A DNA stretch of 64,000 bases. Origin: an uncultured Caldisericales bacterium (GTDB taxonomy: Bacteria > Caldisericota > Caldisericia > JAAYUI01). Position numbers and translations under genes: made by a program. Where the stretch lies: positions 36,893 to 100,892 of the forward strand of contig CAZXEH010000001.1 in assembly GCA_964639885.1 (NCBI GenBank), read 5' to 3'. Shown piece by piece: positions 16,404 to 57,248 of this stretch. The notes beneath the pieces were generated by a model. The model saw only the letters and a list, made by a program, of their open reading frames with translations. It was not told where the DNA came from and did not search any database. Every line of letters begins with the position of its first letter. The stretch's first letter is position 1.

Positions 16404-17092
16404 AGAAAATATTGATCGGACTTGCAGCTGTTGTCATTCTCCTTGCCGGTTGCGGTGCAGCTGACGATAAAAAACCTGACGCAAAAAAACCCGATGATGG
16501 CAAACCGGTTGTGACTGAAAGACCGGAAAAGATTGACGGCTACACACTTTTCACCACACCGGAAGGAACAAGCTTTTATGTTCCAGATGGCTGGAAGAGT
16601 GAAGTCTTCAAGTTCCCGCCAGTCACTGACCCAAACATTGTAATGGCCGGTGCAGAGATCGTTTTTTACCCACCCGACACTGATATAACTGACATCAAAG
16701 ACAAGCTTGCAAACGGCGATTTCAGGTATCAGGAGTTGAATCTTCAGGGCAAAACACTGCTAGTCTACATGCAGGGCGTAACAAACCGCTTCATGCCCGG
16801 TGCATGCAAGGATTATCCACAGGTCACATTCTACGAGAACGGGGACTCTAACTATAAAAACTACTACATCCCATATTCGAAGGATGAGAACACCGAAGCC
16901 TGCTCAGCCACACTGAAACCGCCAGCCCTCAAATACAACGGCGAAGCAAGTGTTTATATCGCATACGGCCAGCGCATGCCAACATCGACACAGCCACTGG
17001 CCCAGTTCTGTGGAATTGCGGTTACATCGTCATCCCTTTCGGTAAAAGACAGGGAGATGTTTGAAAAAATCAGCGCTTCATTCAGATTTTGA
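16400..17092 (+). CDS. hypothetical lipoprotein
   Basis: Lipobox (LLAGCGAADDKKPD). GGAGG RBS. Stop/start overlaps on both sides. Confidence 0.5.
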   Translation: MKKILIGLAAVVILLAGCGAADDKKPDAKKPDDGKPVVTERPEKIDGYTLFTTPEGTSFYVPDGWKSEVFKFPPVTDPNIVMAGAEIVFYPPDTDITDIKDKLANGDFRYQELNLQGKTLLVYMQGVTNRFMPGACKDYPQVTFYENGDSNYKNYYIPYSKDENTEACSATLKPPALKYNGEASVYIAYGQRMPTSTQPLAQFCGIAVTSSSLSVKDREMFEKISASFRF

Positions 17093-17103
17093 CAAAGGAG
17101 ACA

Positions 17104-18585
17104 ATGATGCATCTTAAGAATTACATTAACGGAGTTTGGAAAGACTCAGTCACAGGCAGAACATTTGATGATTTCGACCCGGCAAACGGTGAACTTCTGT
17201 GCACGGTCACAAAATCGAGCGCAGACGATGTAAATGAGGCTGTTGCAGCAGCAAAGGCAGCATTTGCTAAATGGAGAGCGCTTCCCGCACCGGCACGTGG
17301 CGAGATACTGATGAAAGCTGCACACATTCTCGAGGGCAGAAAAGAAGAGATTGCAAGGGAACTGACCTGCGAAATGGGCAAAGTCATTGCCGAGGCAAGG
17401 GGCGATGTTCAGGAAGCAATCGACATGTTCTACCTCATCGGTGGTGAAGGCCGCAGGATGAAGGGTGAAACTGTCCCGTCAGAGATGATGAACAAGCTGA
17501 TCTATGTTGTCCGTGACCCAATCGGCGTTTGTGGACTGATCACACCGTGGAACTTCCCTGTAGCCATTCCGTCATGGAAAATAGCTCCTGCGCTTGTCCT
17601 TGGAAATACCGTCGTGGTCAAGCCGGCAACCGACACACCGCGTTGCATGGTCAGGATGTTTGAAGCCCTAATCGATGCAGGACTCAAGGATTATCCAGGT
17701 GTAATCAACCTCGTTCTCGGTGGTGGCTCAGAAGTCGGCGAAACCATCATCAACCATAAGGACATCAGGATGATCAGCTTCACCGGTTCAACCGATGTTG
17801 GTACAAGGATCGCAACCGTTTGTGGCCAGATGCTCAAGAGATCGTCGCTTGAAATGGGCGGGAAGAACGGCATGATCGTCATGGACGACGCTGACCTTGA
17901 ACTCGCTGTCGAAGCTGCAATCTGGTCGGCGTTTGGAACCACAGGACAGCGTTGCACCGCTTGCTCAAGAATCATCATTCACAGGTCAGTAAAAGAGAAG
18001 TTTGAAAAGATGCTCCTCGACCGTGCGCTCAAGCTCAAGCTTGGACATGGACTTTCATCAGATGTCGGCCCGGTCATCAACAAAACCGCAAGGGAATCAA
18101 TCCACAAATACGTTGAAATCGGCAAGGCAGAAGGCGCAAAGATGCTTTGTGGCGGCGAGTTTGCAACCGATGGCGATCTTTCAAAAGGGTCATTCTACAA
18201 GCCAACAATCTTCACCGATGTCAAGAGAAACATGAGAATTGCACAGGAAGAAATCTTTGGGCCTGTCGTTGCACTCATTCCGTGCGACAGCCTTGAAGAG
18301 GCAATCGATATCAACAACGACACCGCTTTTGGCCTCTCATCCTCAGTCATCACTGCCGACGTGAACAACGCAATGATCGCAGCACGCGACATCACAACCG
18401 GACTGGTCTATGTCAACGCCGGAACGATCGGCGCAGAAGTCAGCTCGCCGTTTGGCGGAACACGCGGAACAGGCAACGGACATCGCGAAGGCGGCGTGCA
18501 GGTTCTCGACGCTTTCATGGAGTGGAAGGTTGTAACTGTCGACTTCTCCGGCCATGTGCAGAAGGCCCAGATAGACAACAAGTGA
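17104..18585 (+). CDS. NAD(P)+-dependent aldehyde dehydrogenase
   Basis: ALDH family, including the catalytic Cys region ([17 protein letters not shown]) and Glu region (LEMGGKNG). AAGGAG RBS before ATG 17104. Confidence 0.9.
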
Positions 18586-18602: not shown

Positions 18603-18632
18603 ATGGCGCCTCACAAAGAGGCGCCATTTTTT
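18603..18632. terminator. bidirectional Rho-independent terminator between convergent genes
   Basis: GGCGCCTC-acaaa-GAGGCGCC hairpin followed by a T-run (ATTTTTTAT). An A-run lies on the opposite side. Confidence 0.6.
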
Positions 18633-19602
18633 ATGGGTAGATTAGTTGAGTTATTGTCACTGATCTAGTTGCAGAATCGTACGAAACCCAACATTCAAAT
18701 ATTTCACCAATGAACCTGAATGGCACCATCAGTGAACCGTTGATTATTACTGGAGGTGTGCCGTTTATTGTTACTTCCTTGCCATTAAAAGTTCCTTTTG
18801 GATTGCCAACATAAATTACCAATAAATTACCTCCCAATTCGACTGTAATCATTTTTGATTCAGCGCTATATGTTACGTTGCCACCAAGGAAAGTATTACA
18901 GAAAAATCTGAGAGGCACCATTGTTGATGCTCTGTAGATTGTTAGTTCAACCGGCATTGTGAATTCAACTCCGTCGATGGTCGCTATTTTATTGTAGGTT
19001 TGCATTTTGCACGTTTTTTCGTGGATGTTTGTGATATTTAGGATGAATGTTGAGATATTACCATATTTGTCGGTAATTTTTATTATGTGGTCAGTTTTCG
19101 AGGGTGACTTTTCAATAGTGAGTTTGACCGTGAACATTATACCATCTTGTTCAGCTTTATTGCCATCTCCTTCGATGATGCATTCTGGTTCTGTGAATCC
19201 CACCTGTTGATATTCGTTGACGTCTTTTGTCTTAATATTAATTTGATTACCTGTCATTAGTTTACTTGAAATGCAAAAATGTACTTTTGGTGCTGTCGTC
19301 CTCATCTGCACGAGGATGCCTTTTGTCGTGGACTGGCCATCTTTTGTGGCTTTGAAGTGGAAGACGTTGTCACCCTCCTTAATTTCGAGGTCAATTTTAA
19401 AAACGCCGTCATCGCCAATTGTGGCGACTTTCTTGCCCCTCATGCTGACCTCGGTTCCTGGCGCAGCTTTACCGATGAGCGTAAAAGGCGATTTGTTCGT
19501 GTAATGAACAAGACCGATCTCAAATTCAACATTCTCTGCTTTTGCCCCAATCACAGGCATTATCAACACCGCAATAATCATTGTCAGAATCATTTTTTTC
19601 AT
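18631..19602 (-). CDS. secreted protein with C-terminal 'copper amine oxidase N-terminal-like' stalk domain
   Basis: Signal peptide (MKKMILTMIIAVLIMPVIGAKA). C-terminal module ...STMVPLRFF...GG.V.Y...VPFRFIGE...W..D...R.V.I, as seen in Cu_amine_oxidN1-type stalk domains. Confidence 0.55.
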   Translation of the reverse strand: MKKMILTMIIAVLIMPVIGAKAENVEFEIGLVHYTNKSPFTLIGKAAPGTEVSMRGKKVATIGDDGVFKIDLEIKEGDNVFHFKATKDGQSTTKGILVQMRTTAPKVHFCISSKLMTGNQINIKTKDVNEYQQVGFTEPECIIEGDGNKAEQDGIMFTVKLTIEKSPSKTDHIIKITDKYGNISTFILNITNIHEKTCKMQTYNKIATIDGVEFTMPVELTIYRASTMVPLRFFCNTFLGGNVTYSAESKMITVELGGNLLVIYVGNPKGTFNGKEVTINGTPPVIINGSLMVPFRFIGEIFECWVSYDSATRSVTITQLIYP

Positions 19603-19612
19603 TTTTGCCTCC

Positions 19613-20589
19613 TTATGGTTGGATGTCTTTTGTTAGCATTATCAACTCGGATACTTTGTCATACTCATAGCTAAACCCGAACAATTCAAAGAAAGATTTG
19701 ACTGGAACGTGAGTTGTGCCATTTTCGATGAATGGCGCTTCATCAATGTCGACAGTGGATCCATCGAAATTGGCAATCTTTTCGTTGGCTCTGCACAATA
19801 ATTTGTTGTCGCCAGCGGTTATGGCGGTGATTCTTGCGCTTGCATCCCACGAAAGCTGACCATTGATTACTTCGCAGAAAAGTCTGATGTTGAGCATGAA
19901 TGTTCCGTTTCTTGTCTTTATTTTATTTATTGAAATTTGTCTGTTGTCAATGGTCATGTTTCCTGAATTAATACCGATGTAGACTCTTTTTGTGTGAATG
20001 TTGTTTATGCCAAGGTTTACGTTGGTTTTGTTACCATATCTATCAACAACATTTATCATGTGAGAATTTTTTGATGGAGCCTCTTTTAATTCTATCTGCA
20101 GCCTGATCCTGTTTCCGTCCACTTCCTGCGTTGCGTTGTCAACGATTATTTTGCACCCAGGGTCAGTGAAGCAAAGAATATCGATTTTTTTGGCATCTTT
20201 GGCATCAAGGTTTATTTTCTGATCAGTGAATGTCTTGCCTCCGATGAACAATGTCACAACCGGTGGTGTCGAATCCATTTCAACATAAATGTCTTTTGTG
20301 ACCTTGGCTCCGTCTTCTGGGAGACCACCTGAAAAAAGTTGCCACCTTCGTTTACATCGAGATAAATCTTGAATGAACCATTATCATCTGCGTATGTGAA
20401 TAGGTTTTGCCCTTCAATTCCAACCTGACTCCCCGGTTCAGCTTTCCCTTCCAGAATAAATGGAGATTTATTGACATACCAAACCTGTTTTACCTCCAGC
20501 GCCAGAGATTGCGCCATACCGCTTGAGAGCGGAACAAACGTTGCAGCAATCAAACCCATCACCACCAATAACATGCCCAGCCGTTTCAT
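19613..20589 (-). pseudogene. frameshifted paralogue of 18631..19602 (secreted stalk-domain protein), disrupted at an A/T homopolymer
   Basis: Two consecutive ORFs (20254..20589 and 19613..20278) align collinearly to the upstream paralogue (VKQVWYVNKSPFILEGKAEPGSQV vs IGLVHYTNKSPFTLIGKAAPGTEV). The reading frame changes at the A6/T6 run near 20335–20340. Adding one base there restores ...EGGNFFSGGLPEDGAKVTKDIYVEMDSTPPVV. Confidence 0.6.
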
Positions 20590-20630
20590 ATTACCTCCGA
20601 AATTATTTACGGTCGAGCTGCAGGTTCGGT

Positions 20631-21266
20631 TCAGATGGTCTTGAAACGCTGGACTGGACAGGTTTGACAAACTGGTTTTGTTTTGCAGTTCTCCTTGCCA
20701 AGCCTGACGATCAACGCATGGTACTCGTTAAAAAGCTTGCGATCCCTTGGAAGATTGGACTCGAAAACTGCTTTCAGGCTTTCATACTCTTCAGCTTCAG
20801 GAATTTGCAGACACCTTGCAAGCCTTTTTGTATAGGCGTCGATTACAAAAGTTGTGTGGTTGCCTGCATAAAGCATGATGGAATCAGCAGTTTCAGGGCC
20901 AATTCCCTTGGTTGCCAGCAGTTCTTCCCTAACAATTTTTTGCGGTCTGTCGAGCATTTTCTCAATTGAGCCGAATTTTCTGAAGACCATTCTGGCAAAG
21001 TCAAGCAGCCTCTCGGTTTTCTGGTTATAAAATCCAACCGGTCTGATCAGGGTTTTGATCAGCTCTGGATCAGCATGAACCATTTTATCCAGCTCAAGAA
21101 GATTTTCGGACTTCAGGTTTGCGATGGCTTTCTCAACATTACTCCAGGCCACCTGTTGGGTCAGAATTGCGCCGACTGCAATCTCCCACGGCGAATCACC
21201 CGGCCACCAGCGCTGAGGCCCGAAATGGCTAAATAGAGCCTCATAGAGGCTTTCAAGTTTGGTCAC
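20631..21266 (-). CDS. HhH-GPD superfamily DNA glycosylase (endonuclease III-related)
   Basis: Helix-hairpin-helix GPD region (LLATKGIGPETADSIMLYA) and a C-terminal 4-Cys cluster (CKTKPVCQTCPVQRF), as in the EndoIII/Nth family. Confidence 0.7.
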   Translation of the reverse strand: MTKLESLYEALFSHFGPQRWWPGDSPWEIAVGAILTQQVAWSNVEKAIANLKSENLLELDKMVHADPELIKTLIRPVGFYNQKTERLLDFARMVFRKFGSIEKMLDRPQKIVREELLATKGIGPETADSIMLYAGNHTTFVIDAYTKRLARCLQIPEAEEYESLKAVFESNLPRDRKLFNEYHALIVRLGKENCKTKPVCQTCPVQRFKTI

Positions 21267-21269
21267 AGA

Positions 21270-21641
21270 TCACATCATTGCGTTTGGCAGGCTTTCGAAG
21301 ATGCTGATCCTGTTTCCGTCAAAATCCTCAAGGGTTGCGAAGTAACCGACTTCAGGAATAGGTGTTTTCTCCCTTACGATTTTCCATCCAACTTGAGCAG
21401 CCTTTGGGAGGGTTTCGTCGATGCTTGGTGCATGCAGATAAAGATCAAAATTCTTCAATGTCGTCGGCTCTTTCACAAGCATGATTCCGCCGCCCAACTT
21501 GTCGTCCGGGAACATGAAAAGCATGTATTGGCTGTCGTTTCCCCAGATTCTGAATGTCCATCCGAAGAAACCGTAGAATTTTTTGAACTTTTCAAAATCT
21601 GTTGTTGAAAATTCCATGTGTACCAGATCGCCAAATGCCAT
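21270..21641 (-). CDS. VOC family protein (glyoxalase/bleomycin-resistance fold)
   Basis: 123-aa single VOC domain; the call rests on its length and its pattern of conserved hydrophobic/Gly residues. Confidence 0.55.
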   Translation of the reverse strand: MAFGDLVHMEFSTTDFEKFKKFYGFFGWTFRIWGNDSQYMLFMFPDDKLGGGIMLVKEPTTLKNFDLYLHAPSIDETLPKAAQVGWKIVREKTPIPEVGYFATLEDFDGNRISIFESLPNAMM

Positions 21642-21685
21642 GAAACACCTCCTGCAAATATTTGATGACCATTGTACAGAAAATA

Positions 21686-21722
21686 AAAAACCGGCGCAAT
21701 GGGCGCCGGTTTTGTCGGTTTT
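21686..21722. terminator. Rho-independent terminator (bidirectional)
   Basis: CCGGCGC-aatg-GGCGCCGG hairpin flanked by AAAAAA upstream and TTTTGTCGGTTTT downstream. Confidence 0.6.
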
Positions 21723-21731
21723 GCTGTCAGA

Positions 21732-22745
21732 TCATTCGGAAGCTGTTTCCGGGAAGTAGCAAGTGACTGTCTTTGTTGCTGCTTCGTAGTCGACCCTTGC
21801 ACCAAGGAGTTCTGAGATCATCCTTACAGGAACGACTGTACTACCGTTGTAGTTGGTGGCCGCTGTCTTGACTGTGACCTTGTCTTTGAACATCTTGCCG
21901 TCGCCGGTCTTGAGCTCGAGAGTGACTGTTGTTGAGTTGAGCGGGAGGCTCATCTTGAAGTAGACGTTCTTGAACTCGAAGGTGTATGAGGCTGTTTTAG
22001 TTGCTGCGTCCCAGCCAACCTTGCAGTAGTCCTTGCCAATGACCTTTTCGCCCATGTCGCGCATCGGGAGATAGGTTGAGCCCTTGATTACAACCGGAGG
22101 AACCTTGAGGGTGTCGGTTGAGTCTGTCATCGGGTATCTCTTTGCCTTGTCCTTGTTTCTGATGTCCCAGGTAAGGCACTTTGTGAGCTTGAGTTCCTTG
22201 TTGTCTATCTGCATCTTTGCAACTGTGAACGGGATGAGCATGCAGCCAAAGTACATTGAGTCGATGGTTCCCTTGTCGCCAACCGGCCAGACATCGACAC
22301 GGCCTGTGCCCATCTGTCCGAACTTGCCGACTGAAGCCACACCGTGCGGAGAGAAGAGGGCGGTCATTGCTTCTTCAAATCCCGGTTCCTTTTCCTTGCC
22401 TGTTGTTCCGGTGACACCTGCGTTGTAGCATGCATCAGAGAAGCAGTATTCGACAATTTCCCAGTCGCCTGACTTTGTGTCTGCGTCATAAGGTGTTGTT
22501 GGGCCGAGGTTGTTCATCATGCCCTGGAACTTCTGTGTTCTGTCTGTGACGTTTTTCATCGAGTAGTGGAAGTGGTTGTTTGACTGGTACGGATAAACTG
22601 TCGGGTTTGGCGCAAACAGTGCCGAGAACTTGAACAGGAATGTCCTGTTGAGGTGCTTGAAAAAGCCCGGGCCTGCGTTGGCAGAGGTGCTGAAACCTGC
22701 AACTGCGATTGCCGCAATGGCAACGATTGCGATAATTTTCTTCAT
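21732..22745 (-). CDS. secreted protein with C-terminal copper-amine-oxidase-N-terminal-like stalk domain
   Basis: Signal peptide (MKKIIAIVAIAAIAVAGFSTSANA). C-terminal module ...STYLPMRDMGEKV...VGWDAATKT...STVVPVRMISELLGARVDYEAATKTVT. Confidence 0.55.
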   Translation of the reverse strand: MKKIIAIVAIAAIAVAGFSTSANAGPGFFKHLNRTFLFKFSALFAPNPTVYPYQSNNHFHYSMKNVTDRTQKFQGMMNNLGPTTPYDADTKSGDWEIVEYCFSDACYNAGVTGTTGKEKEPGFEEAMTALFSPHGVASVGKFGQMGTGRVDVWPVGDKGTIDSMYFGCMLIPFTVAKMQIDNKELKLTKCLTWDIRNKDKAKRYPMTDSTDTLKVPPVVIKGSTYLPMRDMGEKVIGKDYCKVGWDAATKTASYTFEFKNVYFKMSLPLNSTTVTLELKTGDGKMFKDKVTVKTAATNYNGSTVVPVRMISELLGARVDYEAATKTVTCYFPETASE

Positions 22746-22877: not shown

Positions 22878-23645
22878 ATGAAGCTGAGAGCATGGGTATG
22901 GATCGGTGTGGCTGGAATCGTTTTGGCTGCTGGCTTTTTTATGGTTGGCAGAATGCTGGTTTCTGCTCCGAAAACGGTAAATACGACATTTTCAGACGCC
23001 TCAGCGCTGGCAAGCAAGACAAACCTTGATCTGTCCATCGATCCCAAGGACAAATCAACCATCATAGTTTTCAGGCAATTGAACGATAATGCTCAAATCG
23101 GGCAATACTCAGTCTCAACCCTGCAAGCGATTGCCAGTTTGAAGAAAGTTTCAACAGACCTTGCCAATTTCCAGAAAGTCAGGTTCAACCTGAAGTCAGG
23201 CCATTCAAAACGCACTTTTGAAGTCAAGGTTGAAACCCTGCTTTCATATTTCAATGGTGAGATAGGCGAGAAGGCTTTGTGGGGCGAGATTCTTTCAAGT
23301 GGTGAACCTGTGTTTGCGCCAACCGACAGCGGGTTTGGAAAGCAGGATTTTGCTGACATTTTCACGGCTCTGGAACCCGATTCCACCGCAGCCTTTGACG
23401 GTGACACCTTCAAAATCGACCTCGGTTTGTCAAGATCGTTGCAAAGTGAGGCTGCAAGTGTGATGGTCTCGATCGCCTCTGCGTCGGAGGTTTCAGGTTT
23501 CTGGCCAACAAACGTTGAAATAATCGTCACTTCTGATGGCACACAATACCTGCTTGCGTTCAAGTCGACAGTACTTCGCGACATCTCCTCAGGCAAAATC
23601 ACTCCCCAGGAATTCGTTTCAAAGCTGCATCTGGAAAAGAAATAA
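22878..23645 (+). CDS. hypothetical membrane-anchored protein
   Basis: N-terminal TM helix (WVWIGVAGIVLAAGFFMVG). No family recognised. Confidence 0.4.
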   Translation: MKLRAWVWIGVAGIVLAAGFFMVGRMLVSAPKTVNTTFSDASALASKTNLDLSIDPKDKSTIIVFRQLNDNAQIGQYSVSTLQAIASLKKVSTDLANFQKVRFNLKSGHSKRTFEVKVETLLSYFNGEIGEKALWGEILSSGEPVFAPTDSGFGKQDFADIFTALEPDSTAAFDGDTFKIDLGLSRSLQSEAASVMVSIASASEVSGFWPTNVEIIVTSDGTQYLLAFKSTVLRDISSGKITPQEFVSKLHLEKK

Positions 23646-23702
23646 ACTCCCTCATCCGGCTTTCAGCCACCTTCTCCCGCTGACGCAGGCGAAGGAGTGT
23701 TT

Positions 23703-23793
23703 TCCTTTTTTTGCCCCTCTTGATAAGAGGGGGTAGGGGGGAGTTCATTATTTTCTTTGTTTGTCCCCCTTGAGAAGGGGGAATTAGAGGGGG
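23703..23793. repeat. tandem pair of GC-rich hairpin units, each a T-rich run, then a CCCC(C)T(C)TT-NNN-AAG(A)GGGG stem-loop, then a G5-6 tract
   Basis: Unit 1: TTTTTTTGCCCCTCTTgatAAGAGGGGGTAGGGGGGAGTTC. Unit 2: TCTTTGTTTGTCCCCCTTgagAAGGGGGAATTAGAGGGGGTTC. Four G-runs of at least 5 lie within about 75 nt on the + strand. Sits in the convergent intergenic region. Confidence 0.5.
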
Positions 23794-23862
23794 TTCTTGT
23801 ATGATCAACGATGAACCCACCGGCACTGTGTGCCACCTCCCTTCACAATGGAGGCAAAAAAT

Positions 23863-24228
23863 CTACTTAACTTCGATGGTGCGGATGAACTTGCGAGACC
23901 TGGTGGTGCTGTCCTTGATCAGGATCGTCACGTCGAACTTTCCGGCTTCAAAGGTTTTCTCGATTGGGCCAAGCGTGAGTGACCGCGACTCGAGGGACGC
24001 GCTGGAGCCGTCGCCCCAGTCAACCGAGAGCTTGAACGGCGGGAAAGCCTGGTCGAGCGTGGCAGTCAGGCTGACCGGGACGCTGACGCTGGCGATGCCG
24101 TCGTTAACGCCCTCAAAATCCAGCTGGGCGGTGATGGGGAAGATGACCGGCACGCCGATGAAAGCCCCCGCACCGGAAGGCATGGCGACGATGGCCAGGA
24201 GCGCAAGCGCAACAGAGAGTTTCTTCAT
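23863..24228 (-). CDS. small secreted protein with PKD-like (WGDGS) domain
   Basis: Signal peptide (MKKLSVALALLAIVAMPSGAGA). Motif LSVDWGDGSSASLESRSL aligns with the C-terminus of the giant protein at 36331..40950 (LKVNWGDGSPEELYTMRD). GGAGG RBS before MKKL. Confidence 0.5.
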   Translation of the reverse strand: MKKLSVALALLAIVAMPSGAGAFIGVPVIFPITAQLDFEGVNDGIASVSVPVSLTATLDQAFPPFKLSVDWGDGSSASLESRSLTLGPIEKTFEAGKFDVTILIKDSTTRSRKFIRTIEVK

Positions 24229-24246
24229 GCCTCCGGTGTAGCGCAT

Positions 24247-25941
24247 TTAAAGTTTGGATGCAAGACTGTTATCTATGCCTAATTTACAAACAATATCTTT
24301 TAAATATTTTTCAAGATGAATTTTATCATCATCAGAAAAATGCCAAGATTCGGTTTCTATTTCATCTATACGATTATAAACATTAAACTCATCCTTTTTT
24401 ACTAAACCAAAAATAGAGCAAAAATCACCATACAAAATGGAAACAGTTTCTTCGAATCGATTTTCAAGATAGTCTTTCAAAGATTTTATTTCTCGTAAGG
24501 TATCCGTATCACCTTTGTCGTCATCTAATGCGATGATGTAAGGAATTCCAAATTTATCTAATATTTTTGCATGATTCAATAATTTAGAATTCCCCCTTGA
24601 ATTATAGATACTGATATCATTACTATTTAGATTGTGACCTTGTTTCATCAATAACCAAGGTATGGCAATTCTTTCATTGTAGCCTTCGACTAATAATACT
24701 TTATCGGCAAAGAAAAATTCACGTAGTTCAGGTTCAAGCCTTAATGATGTAAAGAATTCGAAGAAATATTTATCAGAACCCAACACGTCAATTCCCTTTG
24801 ATTTTAGATAGTTTATTGAAAAATCGTATAACCCACTTCCATTATTGCTAACTTTTGTTAACCCGTTTATTTTTGATATGATTCTGAGTGAATGAATGTT
24901 CATAGGATCGATGAAATAAGATGAATGGGTGGAGAGGACTATTTTAAAATTTTTATTGCCCACGATCTCAAATAACTTATCTGAAACAGCTTTTTGTTGA
25001 TGTGGATGCATAAATATTTCTGGCTCTTCAATTAATAATATAAGATTGCTTTTGTTATCCTGTATCTTTTTTGAAGCCAATTGAGTAAATAACAACATTA
25101 TCAGCAATCTTTGTAAACCATGACCTAAATTTGTCCACTCTACAGATTCGATCCATTTATCACTTATTAATAATTGCCTGTCAGTAACCAGTTTTTTTGC
25201 ATCAAAATCAGTTGGAAGATACTCAATATTATTGATATCAGGTATAATTTTTTTCATTTCAGATTTAAGAGAGTTAATTATTTCCAAGGCATCTGTTTCT
25301 GGGATTTCTCGAATTTTCTTCAGCGCTTCGCAAATAATGACATTAATTTTTTCAGTATATGTTTTGCTGAATTTGTCATTTAAAAGTTTTCCGAGTATTG
25401 TTGTATTTGCAGTATTTGTTGCTTCTTTTAATATTGGAATTGCAGATAAATATAGAATATCAAATGGAGGTTTTTTATCGACCCAATCAAACTTACCATT
25501 AACTTCCGCTGTCGACTGGTAGATTTCTTTTTCACCTCCAGAATCAACCCAAATGTTTACCGTTGATCGTTTACTATTATTTCCAATATACTTACTAACA
25601 TCATTTTTAAGTGTTAATTTCTCTGATTCTCCTAAATTGGAAAAAGATTCTAATTCTAATAATTTTGCTTTGTAATCATCCTCTAATCTTTTATTGCATA
25701 TATCTGTTATTTCAAAAATACCTTTGTTAAATGCTTTATTTAGTGCAGTCATTATATTGCTTTTACCAGAATTATTTTTCCCTATCAATATCGTTTGATT
25801 ACTAAGGAATATTTCTAATTTATCTATTGTTCTAAAATTGTTTATTTCAATATGAATGTTATCCTCGGGATTGTCCATACAGCCTCCACAATGTTTATAA
25901 ACAAAATCCCCGAAGATTTCAATACCCTCGGGGATTGGCAA
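24247..25941 (-). CDS. OLD-family nuclease: N-terminal ABC-type ATPase + C-terminal TOPRIM domain (Gabija GajA / class-1 OLD-like)
   Basis: Walker A (ILIGKNNSGKSNIMTAL). Walker B/D-loop (LILLIEEPEIFMHPHQQ). C-terminal Toprim with a conserved Glu (LLVEGYNERIAIPWLL) and DxD (IIALDDDKGDTD). The gene is conspicuously AT-rich (about 25–30 %GC by eye) against GC-rich flanks. An alternative start is at the Met at 25878. Confidence 0.75.
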   Translation of the reverse strand: MPIPEGIEIFGDFVYKHCGGCMDNPEDNIHIEINNFRTIDKLEIFLSNQTILIGKNNSGKSNIMTALNKAFNKGIFEITDICNKRLEDDYKAKLLELESFSNLGESEKLTLKNDVSKYIGNNSKRSTVNIWVDSGGEKEIYQSTAEVNGKFDWVDKKPPFDILYLSAIPILKEATNTANTTILGKLLNDKFSKTYTEKINVIICEALKKIREIPETDALEIINSLKSEMKKIIPDINNIEYLPTDFDAKKLVTDRQLLISDKWIESVEWTNLGHGLQRLLIMLLFTQLASKKIQDNKSNLILLIEEPEIFMHPHQQKAVSDKLFEIVGNKNFKIVLSTHSSYFIDPMNIHSLRIISKINGLTKVSNNGSGLYDFSINYLKSKGIDVLGSDKYFFEFFTSLRLEPELREFFFADKVLLVEGYNERIAIPWLLMKQGHNLNSNDISIYNSRGNSKLLNHAKILDKFGIPYIIALDDDKGDTDTLREIKSLKDYLENRFEETVSILYGDFCSIFGLVKKDEFNVYNRIDEIETESWHFSDDDKIHLEKYLKDIVCKLGIDNSLASKL

Positions 25942-25979: not shown

Positions 25980-27230
25980 TCACAGCCCGTACTTCTCGAT
26001 GATCTGATCCTTGGTTTTGCCAAGAATGCCGTACTTTTGGCCGATTTTGGTGAAGGCGTTTATGGCCTTGTCGAGATGCTCCATCTCGTGGCCGGCTGAA
26101 ATCTGAACCCTGATGCGTGCAAGACCCTTGCCAACGACCGGATAGTAGAAGCCGATGACGTAGATGCCTTCGCTGTAGAGGTCTGCGGCGAAGTCCTGGG
26201 CGAGCTTTGCGTTGTAGAGCATGATTGGGACGATGGGATGGACGCCTGGCCTGATGTCGAATCCGGCTGATGTCATCTTTTCCCTGAAGTACTTTGTGTT
26301 TCTTTCCAGCTTGTCGCGGCGCTCGGTGGTGGTTGAGAGAAGGTCGATGACCTTGAGCGCTGCAGCGGCGACCACTGGCGGGATCGTGTTTGAGAACAGG
26401 TATGGGCGCGATCTCTGGCGAAGGAGGTCGATGATCTCTTTCCTGCCCGAGGTTGCTCCGCCTGAGGCTCCGCCAAGGGCTTTGCCAAGGGTGGTTGTGA
26501 TGACGTCGATTCTGCCCATCACGCCGTTGTGCTCATGGGTTCCGCGGCCGGTTTTGCCCATGAAGCCTGTTGCGTGGGAGTCGTCAACCATGGTCATGCA
26601 GTCGTACTTGTCGGCAATGTCGCAGATTTCCTTGAGTTTTGCGACGTCGCCATCCATGGAGAACACGCCGTCTGTTGCGATCATGATGAACCTTACGCCG
26701 TCAGCCCTGGCCTGCTTGCACTTTTCCTCGCAGTCGGCCATGTCGTTGTGCTTGTAGACATAGCGTTTTGCCTTTGAAAGCCTCATGCCGTCGATGATTG
26801 AGGCGTGGTTGAGCTCTTCGGTGACGATTGCGTCCTCTTCCTTGAGCAGCGTTTCAAAAAGTCCGCCGTTTGCGTCAAAGCACGAGGAGTAGAGGATTGT
26901 GTCTTCGGTGCCCAGGAACTCTGAAATCTTTTTTTCAAGCTGTTTGTGGATGTCCTGGGTTCCGCAGATGAAACGGACTGAGCTGAGGCCGTAGCCCCTG
27001 TAGTCCAGACCTTCGTGGGCTGCCTTGATGACGTCGGGGTGGGATGAGAGGCCAAGGTAGTTGTTGGCGCAGAAGTTGAGGGTTTCCTTGATCGGTGCGT
27101 CTTCAGGGAAGCGAACCTTGATGTCTGCCGCCTGTTCGGAAACGATCACCCTTTCATTCTTCCAAAGGCCGGCATCCTTGATTCCGGCAAGCTCTTTTGT
27201 GAGGAATTCTTTCACTTTGCTGTATGCCAT
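25980..27230 (-). CDS. kbl: glycine C-acetyltransferase (2-amino-3-ketobutyrate CoA ligase)
   Basis: PLP-dependent α-oxoamine synthase family; Lys-PLP region [13 protein letters not shown]. Adjacent to tdh. Confidence 0.9.
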
Positions 27231-27242: not shown

Positions 27243-28349
27243 TTACATGCCCATGCGCTTCTTGGCGGCTGCAAGCTCGTTTTTGTCCGGGAAGAGGACG
27301 ATTTTTGCACATTCCCTCGGGTTTGCCGTCAGAAGGTCGAAGGCAGTCTTGTAATCTTCGAGTGCGAACATGTGGGTTATGACCGGTTTAATGTCGAGTT
27401 TTCCTGATGAGAGCATCATTCCGTTCCTGTACCATGTGTCAAAGATTTTTCTGCCGTTGATGCCGTGAATCTGGATTCCTTTGAACACGATTCCGTCGTT
27501 GTAGTCGATGTTTGTGATGGACTGGCTCAGAACTCCGAATGCCGAGACCCTTCCGCCTTTCCTGACCATTTTCAGGCAGTCGTCAATGGCTGATGCAGCA
27601 CCGGCCATTTCGAGGGCAACATCCACGCCGAAGCCGTCAGTGCCGTCCAGAACTGTCTGGAGTCTCTGCTTTGCGTCTTCCTTGAGGATGTTCATCTGGA
27701 CATCAGCGCCCATGATTTTTCCGATTTTGAGGTTATATTCGGCCATGCCAACCTGGAAGATTTTGGATGCGCCGGCAGCTTTTGCGATTCCGACAGCGAA
27801 GAGTGCTATTGGGCCGTCACCGACGATGAGGACTCTCTTGCCATAAATGTCGTGATCCTCGCCAAGCGTGCAGTAGCAGGCGTTTCCGAGCGGTTCCTGT
27901 ACTGAGGCAAGCTCTGGTGAGAGCGACTTGTCATTCTTCCAGAGAACGATTTCCGGGGCGGCGATGTATTCGGCAAAGCAACCGTTTGTGTCCACGCCCA
28001 GAATCTTCATGTTCTTTCCCACATGAAGCACACCCAGCATTGAGGTTAAATCAGCCGGGTCGTAGATGTGGGTTTCACAGCTCACGTAGTCTCCAACCTT
28101 GATGCGGTTGCAGTACGGGCCGACTTCCACAACTTCTCCGCTGCATTCGTGGCCAAGTGTTTGTGGCAGCTTCTTTTCGCCAATTCTTCCCTGTGACCAT
28201 GGGTCCCAGTTCCAGATGTGGACGTCTGTTCCGCAGATTGACGTTGCCTTTACCTTGATGAGCACCCAACCCGGTGCAAGTTTGTCTGGTACCGGAACAT
28301 CAAGAAACTCTGCTCCGACCGCTGGTTTTGTTTTTACTACGGCTCTCAT
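27243..28349 (-). CDS. tdh: L-threonine 3-dehydrogenase (Zn-dependent MDR family)
   Basis: Zn-ADH motifs (GHECSGEV; Cys cluster; GDGPIALFAVGIAKAAGA). Forms the conserved kbl–tdh operon. Confidence 0.9.
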   Translation of the reverse strand: MRAVVKTKPAVGAEFLDVPVPDKLAPGWVLIKVKATSICGTDVHIWNWDPWSQGRIGEKKLPQTLGHECSGEVVEVGPYCNRIKVGDYVSCETHIYDPADLTSMLGVLHVGKNMKILGVDTNGCFAEYIAAPEIVLWKNDKSLSPELASVQEPLGNACYCTLGEDHDIYGKRVLIVGDGPIALFAVGIAKAAGASKIFQVGMAEYNLKIGKIMGADVQMNILKEDAKQRLQTVLDGTDGFGVDVALEMAGAASAIDDCLKMVRKGGRVSAFGVLSQSITNIDYNDGIVFKGIQIHGINGRKIFDTWYRNGMMLSSGKLDIKPVITHMFALEDYKTAFDLLTANPRECAKIVLFPDKNELAAAKKRMGM

Positions 28350-30037: not shown

Positions 30038-30517
30038 TTAGAATTTTATTGCCGGCTTGAGCTGTTTGTAAATCTCTTCCAGACTTGTCGGGTGAATTTT
30101 TACTTCACCTATTACCGGCATGAAGTTTGCATCACCGTCCCATCTTGGAACGATATGAACGTGGATATGATCGGCAATTCCTGCGCCAGCCACTTTTCCA
30201 AGGTTCATTCCAATGTTGAAGCCATCCGGTTCGAGAGTCGCCGAAATGACCTTGGTCATCTCTCTGGCAACCTTGAATATTTCGCAGGTCTCTTCGTCTG
30301 TGAGATCTGCAATCGAGCTGACGTGGCGGTTTGGAATGACCATGCAGTGGCCGGTTGTGTATGGGTACAAATTGAGGATGACAAAGCAATTTTTGCCTCT
30401 CCAGAGCACAAAATTCCTCTCATCCTGATTTTCCGAAACTGCCTTGCAAAACACGCATTTGTCAGGCTTTGGCGATTTGATGAAAGCCATGCGCCAGGGT
30501 GTGAAGATGCTCTTCAC
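30038..30517 (-). CDS. HIT family hydrolase
   Basis: Histidine-triad motif (HIHVHIVPR). C-x-x-C near the N-terminus (CVFCK). Confidence 0.8.
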   Translation of the reverse strand: MKSIFTPWRMAFIKSPKPDKCVFCKAVSENQDERNFVLWRGKNCFVILNLYPYTTGHCMVIPNRHVSSIADLTDEETCEIFKVAREMTKVISATLEPDGFNIGMNLGKVAGAGIADHIHVHIVPRWDGDANFMPVIGEVKIHPTSLEEIYKQLKPAIKF

Positions 30518-31035
30518 GACCCCTTTCCTTCAATGGTTGAGATGTCCTTCATGTGAATGTGGGTGGCAAGGCTGATTGATTTTGCGATTGTCAGAGCGTT
30601 TTCAACGGCTGTTTTTCTGCCGCAGAGAACAAACAGGGACTTCATGCCGTTTCCACCTGCAAGCTGAACTTCGCTGGCTTCAACTCCCTGAACTTCCATC
30701 GCTGCATTGAGTGCTGCAATTGTCGCCTGGATGCCGATGGTTTCAAAGATGCCTGTGTATTCACATCTCGTTGACATCCTCTGGCTTGTTAGCGCTCCTA
30801 TTGTTTTGGAATTGATGCCTCTGATATGGGCGATGTTTGAAACATCTTTTGTCGGATATTCGGCGAGTTTCTCGAACAGCCTCAAAAGTTGGTCTTCCTC
30901 ACCGAAAGCGACAATCTTGGGCGGAAGCAGCGAACGGTCAATTGTCGGAATGACGGTGAGCCCACTTCTTGCTATGGTCTCCCTGACCTTTTGTCTGTCC
31001 GCCCGTGAGTTTGTTTGAATGATAGCTATGTCCAT
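30514..31035 (-). CDS. BMC (bacterial microcompartment shell) domain protein with N-terminal extension
   Basis: C-terminal half fits the BMC pattern (GIFETIGIQATIAALNAAMEVQGVEASEVQLAGGNGMKSLFVLCGRKTAVENALTIA). The roughly 80-aa N-terminal extension is of unknown function. Confidence 0.4.
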   Translation of the reverse strand: MDIAIIQTNSRADRQKVRETIARSGLTVIPTIDRSLLPPKIVAFGEEDQLLRLFEKLAEYPTKDVSNIAHIRGINSKTIGALTSQRMSTRCEYTGIFETIGIQATIAALNAAMEVQGVEASEVQLAGGNGMKSLFVLCGRKTAVENALTIAKSISLATHIHMKDISTIEGKGS

Positions 31036-31039
31036 TTAA

Positions 31040-32602
31040 TCAGGCCGGGTCTGTGTCGTTGAAGTAGAGATTGGCGATTGTGTCAACACCACCTTCAATG
31101 CCTTTGGCGATCCTTTCCTCTTTGTTGTAGCTGTCAACAACTTCTCCAGGGATGATTGTCTTTGCTGTCTTTGTGGCTGCAGTGGAGAACATTCTCGAGA
31201 TCATGTTCACAATCGGAGTTCCGATAACACCAAACACAGCACCGAAAGCAAGCAGCATGACGATGACGAGAAGCGGGTCACCGGTGATGCCTGAGAACCA
31301 CATGAACATCTGGCTGGCGTGAGTGAAATCGAAGGCAAACCACAGGATGAATGACAGAACTGTGAAGAGTACAACCCTGACGATTGTGAGTACAGAACCT
31401 TCACCGTTCTTGATTTTTGCAACTGCCTTCGCAACTGAGGCGTAAAGCTCCGGCTTGTCCAGCAGTGATGCCGGGACGAAGAGGTAATAGAGCATGAAGA
31501 AGCCGTAGACTTTTGTCTCAACCGATTTGTCGCCGTCGAGCTCATAGGTGTGGATGCCAAGTGGGATGATGCTCATTCTCTTGCATATTTCCCTGATTTT
31601 GTCGGTCTTCTCATCACCGATGTCACGAGTCTGGAAAGCTCCCACAAACTCAATGAACATGATTGGAATGAGGACAGCCACTGCCGCGAAGTAAGCCATG
31701 GTGATGATGATTGTGTCTTTAGTCTGGCCAAGCATTCCGAACAGATACATGCCAATCCATGAAGTGATGATCACCGTGAAAATCAGATAAGCGATTGAAA
31801 GCTGAGTCTCTCTGGATTTGAGCTGTCCAATCATCATCAGGACGAAAATGATTATCCAACCAAGTGTTATGACGAGTCCAAGTGCAACCCATCCTGGATA
31901 AACAAGCAGTCTGAGTGTGTTGAATACGGTCCACATGCCAAAGAGTGCAAGGAAGTTGAGGATGGCCATTGTAATGACCAGGACGATGCTTGCCGGTTCA
32001 TGAGACCTTATGACTCTCTTTACGCTGTTGCCAAGGAGGGTGACCAATGCTTTTCTGACAAGGAAATAGATCGGGATGAGTATGATGGCGAGTGCTCCTG
32101 AAAGGATCCACCAGTTTGATGAGGCATGTTCGCCTGGAGCAAGTTCCGGGCTGAAAGTGATGGGGAGGAAGAACATTGTGAGCACGTACATGGCAATGAA
32201 GAAGAAGCCGAACGAGTCAATGAAAGTCGTTCTTGCCCATCTGCCAAGCACAGAAACAAATGGCATGTTGTGGATGCCGTGCTCGTATGCAAGGCTGTTT
32301 TCAACCTTCCAGTCAACAAAGAACGTGATGATGCTGTAAAGAAGATATACAAGGATTGCGAATCCGCCCCAGATGAGGAATGAGAAAGGGTAACCCCTCT
32401 CATAGGCAAGATCGCTGAGGACTCTACCAAGGCCAGTGAACAGGATGACAAGACTGAGAACGAGCCAGATGCCGAACTTGATCAGGTTCTGCTGCCATTT
32501 TTTTGTGAGGAAGCCCGGCTTATAGGGCATTTCCGGTCTTGATGTTTCCGGAATGCTGTCATTGACTGTCGTGTTTACGGGTCTGTAAATCTCTTCTTTC
32601 AT
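31040..32602 (-). CDS. hypothetical polytopic membrane protein
   Basis: 520 aa with at least 10 predicted hydrophobic helices. No family recognised. Confidence 0.45.
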   Translation of the reverse strand: MKEEIYRPVNTTVNDSIPETSRPEMPYKPGFLTKKWQQNLIKFGIWLVLSLVILFTGLGRVLSDLAYERGYPFSFLIWGGFAILVYLLYSIITFFVDWKVENSLAYEHGIHNMPFVSVLGRWARTTFIDSFGFFFIAMYVLTMFFLPITFSPELAPGEHASSNWWILSGALAIILIPIYFLVRKALVTLLGNSVKRVIRSHEPASIVLVITMAILNFLALFGMWTVFNTLRLLVYPGWVALGLVITLGWIIIFVLMMIGQLKSRETQLSIAYLIFTVIITSWIGMYLFGMLGQTKDTIIITMAYFAAVAVLIPIMFIEFVGAFQTRDIGDEKTDKIREICKRMSIIPLGIHTYELDGDKSVETKVYGFFMLYYLFVPASLLDKPELYASVAKAVAKIKNGEGSVLTIVRVVLFTVLSFILWFAFDFTHASQMFMWFSGITGDPLLVIVMLLAFGAVFGVIGTPIVNMISRMFSTAATKTAKTIIPGEVVDSYNKEERIAKGIEGGVDTIANLYFNDTDPA

Positions 32603-32604
32603 TT

Positions 32605-33246
32605 CTACCTCACTATCCTGACTTTATCGCCTGAGTTCAGCCAGGCGCCGTTTGCTTCGTCTGTGTCAACATGGAAATCTAGCGCAAAGGCAGCGTCGAC
32701 TCTGATCACTACATCTCCAACAATGGTTTTTCTTGGAGTGTTGGCGACCACCCAAACCTCTTCCTTGTCCTTGATGCCGAATTTCTCGGCTTCCGAGGTA
32801 TGCATGTGGATGTGTCTGGCTGGAACAATAACACCTTTGTCAATTGTTATTTCACCGTTAGGGCCAACAATCTTGAGTCCCGGTGTGCCTTCGATGTCGC
32901 CTGAAGTTCTGAGAACAGGATCTACTCCCAGAAGGAAGGCGTCAGTTTTTGAAATTTCGACCTGCGTTGCTTTTCTTGCCGGGCCAAGGATTCTGACGTT
33001 CTTGATGGTGTTCTTCGGGCCAACAATGTCAACCTTCTCATTTGAAGCGTACTGTCCCGGCTGTGTCAGATCCTTGTAAACGGTGAGGTCGTGCCCGAAA
33101 AGTATCTGTACGTGTTCGGCTGTGAGGTGTGCGTGTCTTGCCGAGACGCCAACATTGATGTCAAGAGCGTTCTTATCGGCAAGCGTTTTTTCTACAAGTT
33201 CATTTATATTCATATCTTCAAAACCCCTTAGGTATTTTTTCCACAA
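32605..33246 (-). CDS. pduL: phosphate propanoyltransferase PduL-like (phosphotransacylase)
   Basis: Two PduL repeat motifs (GVSARHAHL...; VPARHIHMH). 213 aa. Confidence 0.7.
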   Translation of the reverse strand: MWKKYLRGFEDMNINELVEKTLADKNALDINVGVSARHAHLTAEHVQILFGHDLTVYKDLTQPGQYASNEKVDIVGPKNTIKNVRILGPARKATQVEISKTDAFLLGVDPVLRTSGDIEGTPGLKIVGPNGEITIDKGVIVPARHIHMHTSEAEKFGIKDKEEVWVVANTPRKTIVGDVVIRVDAAFALDFHVDTDEANGAWLNSGDKVRIVR

Positions 33247-34219
33247 TCGAGTCTGCTATCGAGCATAGTAAATCAAGCGCTTCCTTTTTAACAAAAAATG
33301 AAACCGCTTCAAGGTCTTTTTTGGCTTTTGAACAATAACCCCTGGTTATTTCCAGAGACTTTGCAAGTGTCTGTTTTTCAACTGCTTCTTTCTTCACAGA
33401 GTCAAAATCCCTGTCCCAGAAGCCATCTTTTGGTTCGAGGAGGATCATGGGGTAAGTAAGGATGCCTTCCTCAAAATCCTTTCCCATCTTCTTTCCTTCA
33501 GGGCCGATCATGTCCATGAGGTCATCAGCCATCTGGAAAGCCATGCCAAGGTTGAGACCGTAATCAGTCATCGCTTTTCTGACCTCCAGGTCGCAGTTGG
33601 CGATGATGCATGGGGCAAGTGAACAAAAGGACATCAGGGAGCCGGTTTTCAGGGAGATGGTTCCCAGATAATGACTCAAAGTCCTGTCCTTGTCATATGT
33701 TGTGTCGATTTCCATCGCCTCGCCAAGGGTCATCTGTGAGATGACATTGGCGAAAACCGAAACCAGTTCCTGGGATTTGAAAATCCCAAGCTCTATCAGA
33801 GCCTGGGAGATGATGTAGTCTCCGGTGAGGACAGCGAACCTGTTGCCGTAAAGTACGTTTACGGTTTGTTTTCCTCTTCTTGAGTTTGCTTCATCCACAA
33901 CATCATCGTGCACAAGGCTTGCTGCCTGGATGAGTTCGACAAAGGTTCCCAGGTGAATGGATGTTTCGATGTCAACACCGAGAATGTTTGACACCGCAAC
34001 CGCAAGCCTGGCCCTGTATCTCTTGCCTGAAAGCTGGCTTGATGAAGACATGCTCTTGATCTTGTCAAACCAGTCTATGTTGCTGTGGCTTTGAAGGCTA
34101 GTATTGGTTTTTATCATGAGTCTGACCGCATCAGCGATTGGACCTTCGGCAACTTTTTGCAGCCTCGAGTTCACACCTTCAATTGAGCGGTCTATATAGT
34201 CACTTGAAAAAAATTCCAC
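33218..34219 (-). CDS. polyprenyl diphosphate synthase (trans-isoprenyl diphosphate synthase family)
   Basis: First and second Asp-rich motifs (LVHDDVVD; FQMADDLMD). GTG start at 34219 is inferred; the ORF is open to 34378. Confidence 0.75.
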   Translation of the reverse strand: MEFFSSDYIDRSIEGVNSRLQKVAEGPIADAVRLMIKTNTSLQSHSNIDWFDKIKSMSSSSQLSGKRYRARLAVAVSNILGVDIETSIHLGTFVELIQAASLVHDDVVDEANSRRGKQTVNVLYGNRFAVLTGDYIISQALIELGIFKSQELVSVFANVISQMTLGEAMEIDTTYDKDRTLSHYLGTISLKTGSLMSFCSLAPCIIANCDLEVRKAMTDYGLNLGMAFQMADDLMDMIGPEGKKMGKDFEEGILTYPMILLEPKDGFWDRDFDSVKKEAVEKQTLAKSLEITRGYCSKAKKDLEAVSFFVKKEALDLLCSIADSIVEKIPKGF

Positions 34220-57170: not shown

Positions 57171-57248
57171 GGTGGATGTAGCTCAGTTGGTTAGAGCGCC
57201 AGTCTGTGGAACTGGAGGCCGGGGGTTCAAATCCCCTCATCCACCCCA
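57171..57248 (+). tRNA. tRNA-His (anticodon GTG) with encoded G-1 and 3' CCA
   Basis: G-1 + GTGGATG acceptor stem pairing with CATCCAC. Discriminator C. D-arm GCTCAGTTGGTTAGAGC. Anticodon loop CTGTGGA. T-arm GGGGGTTCAAATCCCCT. CCA encoded. Confidence 0.85.

Follow-up and report, generated by a model that had tools for sequence, protein, structure and literature searches.

The 64,000-nucleotide stretch of DNA analysed here, called the window at its full length, comes from an uncultured Caldisericales bacterium (assembly GCA_964639885.1, contig CAZXEH010000001.1, positions 36,893 to 100,892) and carries at 24247..25878, on the minus strand, a gene for a 543-amino-acid (aa) protein of the OLD family, a Class-1-type enzyme with an ABC ATPase and a Toprim nuclease domain. 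The gene has a guanine-plus-cytosine content (GC) of 0.292 and is bordered on one side by kbl, encoding glycine C-acetyltransferase (25980..27230, minus strand, stop codon at 25980..25982; Pfam Aminotran_1_2, 1.3e-65), and on the other by a small gene of GC 0.609 (23863..24246, minus strand) for a secreted PKD-like beta-sandwich protein of 127 aa, or 121 aa if translation starts at 24228. A Joint Genome Institute (JGI) source also labels a member of the kbl cluster glycine C-acetyltransferase, and tdh lies upstream of kbl (27243..28349). An original prediction, made from the letters of the sequence, had described a gene of 25-30% GC by eye between kbl, with its stop at 25980, and a GC-rich PKD-like gene whose start abuts the OLD stop codon, and each of these observations was confirmed. 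It had treated 23863-25941 as a single-gene island; the island is real, but that range spans two genes, the OLD gene and the small gene.

The longest open reading frame (ORF) listed for the gene (24247..25941, minus strand, 564 aa) begins at a TTG codon and crosses the intrinsic terminator of kbl (25936..25905). Translation almost certainly begins instead at the ATG at 25878, for a protein of 543 aa, because a GGAGG motif lies 4 nt upstream, the public gene call is 543 aa long, and the terminator falls inside the TTG extension. An identical 543-aa protein is called in public assemblies, the same gene occurs in two independent assemblies, and the reading frame is intact. GC at third codon positions (GC3) is 0.235, and the mean GC of the window is 0.473. 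Relative to other 1,632-bp segments of the 64 kb (mean 0.477, standard deviation 0.030) the gene stands at z = -6.1, and relative to 20 neighbouring genes at z = -4.8 for GC and -4.4 for GC3, so its composition is atypical by calculation as well as by eye. The edges of the trough are sharp, with GC reaching ~0.55 at kbl and ~0.65 at the small gene, both within 100-200 bp.

Domain searches recover an ATPase followed by a Toprim domain, with Pfam matches to AAA_15 (2.5e-28, residues 31-344 of the 564-aa ORF), AAA_21 (6.3e-16), and then OLD-like_TOPRIM (PF20469, 2.4e-16). The ABC-ATPase region covers residues 8-345 (24844..25857, minus strand), as delimited by Pfam AAA_15 and a residue map against Thermus scotoductus OLD (Ts OLD) and phage P2 Old, and includes the Walker A motif GKNNSGKS at residues 33-40, G33-S40 (25759..25782, minus strand). 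The Toprim nuclease domain covers residues 390-500 (24379..24711, minus strand), as delimited by PF20469 and alignments. The predicted domain order and the motifs quoted for it (GKNNSGKS, LILLIEEPE, E398, and D452-D-D454) are all present, and the Toprim domain sets the protein apart from Toprim-less ATPases of the SMC/RecF/RecN type. The top PADLOC model is Old (5.5e-50); many GajA models also match, the best at 4.2e-32, and the best AriA match (4.4e-31) is restricted to the ATPase part and ranks below the Old model. The top match of the single protein in the PDB is Ts OLD (6P74), and a profile built from a 54-sequence family ranks 6P74 (1.4e-111) ahead of GajA (7.9e-55) and the OLD protein of retron Eco8 (1.1e-25), with AriA structures far below. 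An AlphaFold model of the protein (predicted local distance difference test score, pLDDT, 79; predicted template modelling score, pTM, 0.78) gave the same ranking in Foldseek, with 6P74 first, then GajA, and then the retron Eco8 OLD. The NCBIfam model for the retron Eco8 effector scored 46 bits against a cutoff of 250, and PtuA models were likewise far under their cutoffs. In a phage collection of 50,697 records the top match was P2 Old, at 23.6% identity over 82% of the query, and all matches were distant. Plasmid matches reached at most 26% identity, and a scan of viral contigs with the OLD alignment found no relative; there is therefore no sign that this OLD subfamily is phage-borne.

Set against the published definitions of the OLD classes (PMC10568477; PMC12392090), the protein is a Class-1-type OLD and not a GajA, by both context and sequence. 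Neither a GajB nor another UvrD-like helicase, as in Class 2 (Gabija), is encoded downstream or by any gene within 10 kb, and the helical insert in the Toprim domain typical of Class 2 is missing by spacing in the profile alignment, where E398-D452 and D454-C487 are 54 and 33 residues apart, compared with 54 and 47 in Ts OLD and ~78 in GajA. Regarding the retrons of Class 3, no reverse-transcriptase domain was found among the neighbours within the same 10 kb, and an Rfam scan of the window returned a tRNA-His gene only. The layout of Class 4 (PARIS), in which the Toprim part is of the DUF4435 type, differs as well, as ATPase and Toprim are fused here in one polypeptide and do not form a separate AriA and AriB. 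The proposed match to class-1 OLD and GajA thus survives in its first half, while PADLOC, the profile search, Foldseek, and the Toprim spacing favour Old and 6P74 over a GajA-like protein; the predicted lack of a UvrD-like GajB and of a PARIS-type partner was borne out.

Catalytic residues experimentally defined for Ts OLD and P2 Old (PMC7049728) served as reference, with the P2 numbering checked on the P2 sequence. In the ATPase, Walker A K39, Walker B E284 (in LILLIEEPE, with Glu as in Thermus OLD), D-loop H291, and H-loop H318 correspond to P2 K37, D299, H306, and H332, and align with Ts K34, E276, H283, and H310. In the Toprim domain, the metal-A ligands E398, D452, and D454 (P2 E398, D453, and D455) are invariant or nearly so in the 54 homologues, and metal-B residues E402 and D485 with the downstream K494 correspond to P2 E402, D541, and K550. 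Ten of the 11 catalytic positions of P2 Old and Thermus OLD are identical or equivalent in the window protein. The remaining position, the metal-B glutamate (Ts E480, P2 E543), is C487 here (codon 24418..24420), in a column occupied by Glu in >90% of 51 other homologues; in P2 Old, the substitution E543A abolishes killing (PMC7049728). The register at C487 is set by the motif (P2 GDIEAVYGFGKK versus GDFCSIFGLVKK in the window) together with the strand-helix register of the AlphaFold model, the posterior support of the hidden Markov model being low in this segment. The Q-loop column is also unusual, with Arg in most homologues, Gln in the homologue P0148, and Pro (P148) in the window protein. 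An extra insert at residues 61-137 is poorly conserved, with low pLDDT and 8-12% identity between the alleles described below, and is followed by a helical region at residues 138-250; the insert and the C-terminus are the likeliest candidates for specificity or sensing regions.

A HMMER search run exhaustively over 1.84 billion representative sequences returned 22,257 relatives, among which six stand in a top group (E ≤7.5e-98) and the next match follows at 1.5e-44. All six share both P148 and the D-x-C motif. Although they are only 32-44% identical in pairwise comparisons, 65 positions are the same in all of them, the catalytic residues among these, with E402 replaced only by Asp; this indicates purifying selection on the OLD protein. 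C487 thus reads as a constrained feature of a rare six-member subfamily and not as decay.

The kbl terminator and the 5′ region of the small gene enclose a slot, ~1.6 kb long in the window, whose content differs among relatives. Further loci were traced through members of the small-protein and kbl clusters, giving ten related loci with the kbl-side flank, in eight of which the start of the small gene is kept. The ten loci hold seven types of AT-rich cargo: OLD (three alleles), GmrSD (two alleles), a HEC-01 pair, and four types that were not recognised. The two nearest OLD homologues (38% and 34% identity) occupy the same slot, in loci L003 and L004. L003 is colinear with the window from a polyprenyl synthase gene over tdh, kbl, and OLD through HhH-GPD and Cu_amine_oxidN1 genes, whereas L004 starts at the end of kbl, has OLD and then a small-gene homologue, and shows the same contrast in GC. 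A 610-611-aa GmrSD enzyme fills the slot in L085 and L091/L092 (PADLOC Orf5/HEC-06/type IV restriction, with Pfam in agreement), and L086 has, on the opposite strand, an AAA_21 ATPase and a 198-aa DUF4276-like protein (PADLOC HEC-01A/B, 5.7e-145 and 1e-48, with Pfam in agreement). The other contents are a 141-aa lipoprotein with a 96-aa protein that match no family (L088-L090), a DUF4337 protein with three small proteins that match no defence family (L093), a 669-aa ORFan of GC 0.258 with a C-terminal hydrophobic segment (L094, 8229..10238, minus strand), and an AT-rich gene cut short by the contig end that carries an R-x4-H motif (L087, 1..642, plus strand) and has only weak PADLOC matches of the CARF/HEPN type (~2e-4). 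Scans with PADLOC, Pfam, and other family collections recognised no defence gene in these four types; by position, the L094 ORFan and the partial L087 gene are candidate new defence genes.

Cargo GC is 0.26-0.40 in every locus and flank GC is 0.53-0.61. The flanks are also far more alike than the cargo: kbl is 94-99.5% identical at the aa level across the related loci and flank proteins are 92-99.5% identical, whereas the window OLD is 34-38% identical to the L003 and L004 alleles. Between the window and L003, identity is 94% for kbl, 92% for tdh, 94% for aldehyde dehydrogenase, and 38% for OLD, and the three OLD alleles of the slot are 35-44% identical to one another. Nor does cargo type follow the relatedness of the flank, as the 3′ halves of kbl are 86-97% identical at the nucleotide level without relation to cargo. 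By kbl, the window is closest to L085, which holds GmrSD, and the kbl genes of L088, L091, and L086 are within 95-97% of each other, yet these loci have three different cargoes. The kbl slot is therefore a strain-variable site that holds different defence systems in related genomes, and the presence of GmrSD and HEC-01 in the same place lends support to the earlier proposal of horizontally acquired defence cargo. No empty slot was seen among the loci found. Divergence in situ by vertical descent was considered as the sole source of the alleles and judged unlikely, as slot alleles, at 35-44% identity, are scarcely closer to each other than to subfamily members from other contexts (32-37%). One such member, P0145, the fourth of the subfamily, is likewise a lone AT-rich gene (GC 0.31 against ~0.47), located in L096 (GCA_054921975.1) between dus and a membrane protein, a context unrelated to the kbl slot. 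A query of the genome collection with kbl returned only genes of ≤72% identity from unrelated phyla, none with OLD downstream, and the lineage is therefore not represented in the species-level genome set; a metagenome scan with the kbl terminator pattern found no match.

The junctions of the slot are common to the loci and precise almost to the base. On the left, the intrinsic terminator of kbl (25905..25936, minus strand, from a terminator scan and RNA folding) has a 13-bp stem followed by TTTTGTTT, with the T-tract reaching ~25899, and is conserved in the window, L003, L004, L085, L091, and L093. When the cargo points in the direction of kbl, homology runs through the terminator and ...GGGGATTTTGTTTATA and then ends (window, L003, L004, L091, and L093), with a departure of a few bases in L085. 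Where the cargo beside kbl is on the opposite strand (L086, L088, and L094), homology ends just past an altered kbl stop (TGTAATT) and the cargo has a hairpin of its own. On the right, the conserved flank TCTTGCATCCAAACTTTAAATGCGCTACACCGGAGGCATG (24226..24265, minus strand) contributes the end of the OLD coding sequence with its stop codon, the TAAATG junction, and the two possible starts of the small gene. Homology resumes at the flank consensus CTCTTGCATCCCAACCTTAAATGCGCTACACCGGAGGCATG after unrelated cargo in L004, L085, L086, L087, L088, L091, and L093. The six final codons of OLD, together with its stop, consequently fall within sequence that is conserved whatever the cargo, and the final residues LASKL are flank-encoded, with the flank here reading TCTTGCATCCAAACTTTAAATG. 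The L003 allele ends in a 16/20 remnant of the right flank (…SLASQS) and has lost the small gene. A search for direct or inverted repeats around the cargo gave just short AT-rich chance matches, and the slot and its neighbourhood are free of integrase and transposase genes. A single RNA gene was detected in the window, tRNA-His (GTG; 57172..57248, plus strand); it is far from the OLD gene, so that the slot does not count as a tRNA-associated integration site. Exchange of cargo would be explained most economically by homologous recombination in the flanks.

Nested in the kbl terminator is a candidate sigma-70-type promoter read from the sequence (25894..25922, minus strand), with a -35 element TTGAAA in the hairpin loop (25922..25917), a 17-nt spacer, and a -10 element TATAAA (25899..25894), followed by a GGAGG ribosome-binding site (25887..25883). 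The same layout recurs in L003, L004, L085, L091, and L093, with TTGCAA or TTGAAA, 17 nt, and TATAAA, TATAAC, TATATT, TATAGT, or TATGTT. We hypothesize that this promoter would drive whatever fills the slot. A specific 5′ untranslated region common to the three OLD alleles was looked for and rejected, as few bases are alike beyond the common flank and a generic GGAGG.

The small gene on the other side of the slot encodes a protein with a signal-peptide-like N-terminus and a VDWGDGS motif, to be compared with the WDFGDG-like motif of PKD domains. Its model has pLDDT >80 for residues 40-127, and the best Foldseek match is the PKD domain of the collagenase ColG (E 3.8e-4, TM-score 0.78, root-mean-square deviation 2.3). 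No Pfam family matched, PKD included, and the model makes the PKD-like label reasonable at the level of the fold. Among 22 local genes it has the highest GC (0.609, with GC3 0.812 and z ~+3.8) and directly adjoins the most AT-rich one, and its high GC is kept in relatives (0.58-0.61). Its ATG directly follows the OLD stop codon in the arrangement TAAATG. Six of the seven cargo types are followed by the gene, the abutment at TAAATG likewise occurs with six of the seven, and the gene is absent beside OLD in L003 and beside P0145 in L096. Since the same small gene and TAAATG follow unrelated cargo, the gene is a constant flank gene of the slot and not a partner of OLD. A metagenome scan with the small-protein alignment gave no confirmed relative.

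The genes within 10 kb of OLD encode metabolic or surface proteins, such as kbl, tdh, and the PKD-like gene. Besides kbl, no neighbour recurs with OLD across the kbl-slot loci and none is shared with the context of P0145 in L096, which agrees with the suggestion of a standalone OLD-type gene. The gene is thus probably a standalone Class-1-type OLD, most likely a one-gene anti-phage defence, lodged in an exchangeable slot. Reasoning from Ts OLD (PMC7049728), the protein would dimerise through the helical insert of its ATPase, and, as in its homologues, ATP binding and hydrolysis may gate a two-metal Toprim site. A phage-derived cue during infection would trigger the enzyme, which may then nick or cut DNA, as Vibrio and Thermus OLD do, or tRNA anticodon stems, as P2 Old does; sequence alone cannot decide between the two substrates. 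Cleavage would halt phage replication or kill the infected cell by abortive infection, as with P2 Old. Cargo would be exchanged by recombination in the flanks, and OLD may be expressed either by read-through or from the promoter inside the terminator of kbl, with the very AT-rich codon usage possibly keeping a potentially toxic nuclease low.

Among other explanations, the original prediction had raised a new pairing of OLD with the PKD-like protein, that is, a two-gene system translationally coupled at TAAATG in which the small protein acts as sensor, regulator, or immunity factor. The two genes do abut with no terminator between them and are probably co-transcribed in the window, and the pair recurs in L004 with the same contrast in GC. 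However, the small gene and its upstream TAAATGCGC are unchanged after GmrSD (L085 and L091), after HEC-01 on the opposite strand (L086), and after other cargo (L087, L088, and L093), OLD occurs without the small gene in L003 and, as P0145, in L096, and a signal peptide with a PKD fold implies an extracytoplasmic protein, away from a cytoplasmic nuclease; such a pairing is hardly credible, and the proposal was dropped. A housekeeping role, for instance in DNA repair or the cell cycle, with an AT-richness unrelated to mobility, would suit the metabolic neighbours kbl and tdh and a window with no classical defence island, and a non-defence member of the OLD family exists in the archaeal ATPase Cran1 (PMC12796447). 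Close relatives with kbl proteins 98-99.5% identical nevertheless have GmrSD, HEC-01, or unrelated cargo in place of OLD, and a housekeeping gene would not be expected to be dispensable, or only 34-38% identical where kbl is 94%, which makes this role quite improbable.

Another explanation concerns how the enzyme works: OLD may act mainly through its ATPase, with the Toprim domain altered or dispensable, or may use a different metal chemistry through the cysteine. Here C487 replaces a glutamate that is found in >90% of 51 homologues and P148 sits at the Q-loop, and there is a precedent in Escherichia coli YbjD (OldB), whose anti-phage phenotypes require the ATPase but not the Toprim domain (PMC13261556). 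The window protein nevertheless retains every metal-A ligand along with E402, D485, and K494, and the invariance of C487 in six proteins only 32-44% identical argues for a working, constrained Toprim site, so that this mode of action is possible but rather unlikely. The gene might also be a selfish or addictive element, or a recent and unexpressed transfer, silent AT-rich DNA without current benefit to the host. Its composition is extreme, a GC3 of 0.235 implies poor codon adaptation, and no clear promoter passed the scan. The frame is intact, however, purifying selection acts on all catalytic motifs throughout the subfamily, the flank has kept a ribosome-binding site and a plausible promoter, and the gene is identical in two independent assemblies; a silent passenger is therefore considered very improbable.

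Several points weigh against reading the gene as a standalone defence system. Its defence role, trigger, and substrate are inferred from homologues. With a cysteine where P2 Old has its metal-B glutamate and a proline at the Q-loop, ATPase and nuclease chemistry may differ or be impaired. Cran1, an archaeal ATPase of the same family, has a non-defence role (PMC12796447). Four of the seven cargo types (lipoproteins, the DUF4337 protein, and ORFans) are not recognisable defence genes, so guilt by association is only partial, and no other recognised defence gene lies beside OLD in the window. The promoter is a consensus-level guess that is absent from the promoter scan list, because its -10 element ends in A.

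Among characterised enzymes, Ts OLD (6P74) is the best match in sequence, profile, and fold, with the same arrangement of ABC ATPase and Toprim in a single polypeptide of 528 aa compared with 543 aa here. The Walker A Lys, Walker B Glu, D-loop and H-loop His, metal-A E/D/D, first metal-B acid, and the 54-residue distance from E to DxD are all alike, while overall identity is ~18-20%, Ts E480 is replaced by C487 and the Q-loop Ts H140 by Pro, and the insert at residues 61-137 is extra. Phage P2 Old is also a single-gene system, with 10 of its 11 killing-essential residues matched here and a C-terminal motif GD-x-(E/C)-xxxG-xx-KK recognisable in both, but it is prophage-borne and has E543, whereas the window gene is chromosomal without a surrounding prophage and has C487. 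P2 Old is triggered by inhibition of RecBCD and cuts tRNA anticodon stems (PMC12445682). Vibrio cholerae OLD (Vc OLD), the earliest bacterial Class 1 member with demonstrated anti-phage activity, nicks DNA and thereby blocks genome replication, which proves that one OLD gene can give protection (PMC12392090). It is likened to the window protein by its setting, being also chromosomal, standalone, and on variable DNA; it differs in residing with DarTG on a defence element, whereas the window OLD is alone in a 1.6-kb slot. Gabija GajA shares a homologous ATPase-Toprim fold and gives the second-best PDB and fold matches, and differs by GajB and the helical insert, neither of which is found here. 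In split pairs of the PARIS type and in the PADLOC candidate HEC-01, the domains are on separate proteins; HEC-01A/B in L086 occupies the same slot as functionally analogous cargo with a related ABC ATPase, whereas the window OLD is fused. The slot itself resembles the hotspots of the E. coli pan-genome, in which a fixed site between conserved genes holds different defence systems; those hotspots are reported to be mostly filled by integrase-bearing mobile elements (PMC10121019). The kbl slot differs in that its one to four genes include none for mobility, repeats are missing, and the loci share junctions that are exact almost to the base.

Other features of the region were noted alongside. 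On the far side of the small gene, a 255-aa membrane-anchored protein (22878..23645, plus strand) is 28% identical to its L003 counterpart, where the genes around it show 71-94% identity; it has normal GC and matches no family, its C-terminal motif SGKITP.EF is conserved, and it may be a surface protein under diversifying selection. The convergent intergenic region between it and the small gene (23650..23860) contains two C/G-run hairpins, CCCCCTTCTCAAGGGGG and CCCCTCTTATCAAGAGGGG, and the hairpin is not repeated elsewhere in the window. The contigs of L002, L085, L088, and L091 end ~50-150 bp from the stop of the small gene, as if assembly had broken off at strain-variable sequence. Secreted proteins with copper amine oxidase N-terminal-like domains are encoded in a row at 18631..22745 (minus strand); they are only 30-82% identical to their L003 counterparts and are accompanied by a mildly AT-richer stretch at 19-20 kb (GC 0.40). 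Microcompartment-type genes surround the locus at 17089..18585 and 30514..33300, and also occur in L001 and L093; the set comprises PTAC (a PduL-like phosphotransacylase), a BMC-domain protein, aldehyde dehydrogenase, and a 520-aa membrane protein, the BMC-domain match being weak in the window and called in L093.

The window also contains a second sharp AT-rich single-gene island at 42597..43661 (minus strand), with a minimum GC of 0.233 over 300 bp. It encodes a 354-aa ORFan, flanked by a beta-propeller/Cu_amine_oxidN1-type protein and a 3-hydroxyacyl-CoA dehydrogenase-like gene, that matched nothing in Pfam, PADLOC, NCBIfam, or PHROGs and had no homologue among 5.8 billion proteins. The ORFan carries an R-x4-H-like motif (ESRHKISH); a link to the L087 cargo was considered and rejected, as the two have no similarity. 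This island may be another cargo slot.

Standalone, or Class 1, enzymes are the least understood class of OLD. To our knowledge, phage phenotypes in this class are limited to P2 Old, Vc OLD, and YbjD, which differ in trigger and substrate. Nothing in the locus overturns current understanding. Class 1 OLD genes (PMC10568477) and defence hotspots flanked by core genes (PMC10121019) are already known; what is new is the occurrence in an uncultured lineage whose kbl has no relative above 72% identity in the species-level genome set, the very compact slot without mobility genes and with shared junctions, the presence of such distant OLD alleles in a single socket, and the subfamily with Cys and Pro. 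It is conceivable, if somewhat doubtful, that these come together, with the Cys/Pro subfamily being a mechanistically distinct OLD and the kbl slot an integrase-free "expression socket". If so, the enzyme might be metal-selective or redox-gated, owing to a thiolate in its Toprim site and a non-canonical ATPase switch, the promoter inside the kbl terminator would drive any AT-rich cassette swapped in by flank recombination, and the diverged OLD alleles (35-44% identity, with kbl at 94%) would be kept as a long-lived polymorphism.

For the family, the slot provides a natural series of very divergent OLD alleles, from which the catalytic core can be read in what is conserved and the likely specificity regions in what varies, and the cysteine in the metal-B site of the Toprim domain is a simple, testable variation of the two-metal mechanism. 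For this uncultured lineage, the unrecognised cargoes of the slot, such as the L094 ORFan and the partial L087 gene, are candidate new defence genes.

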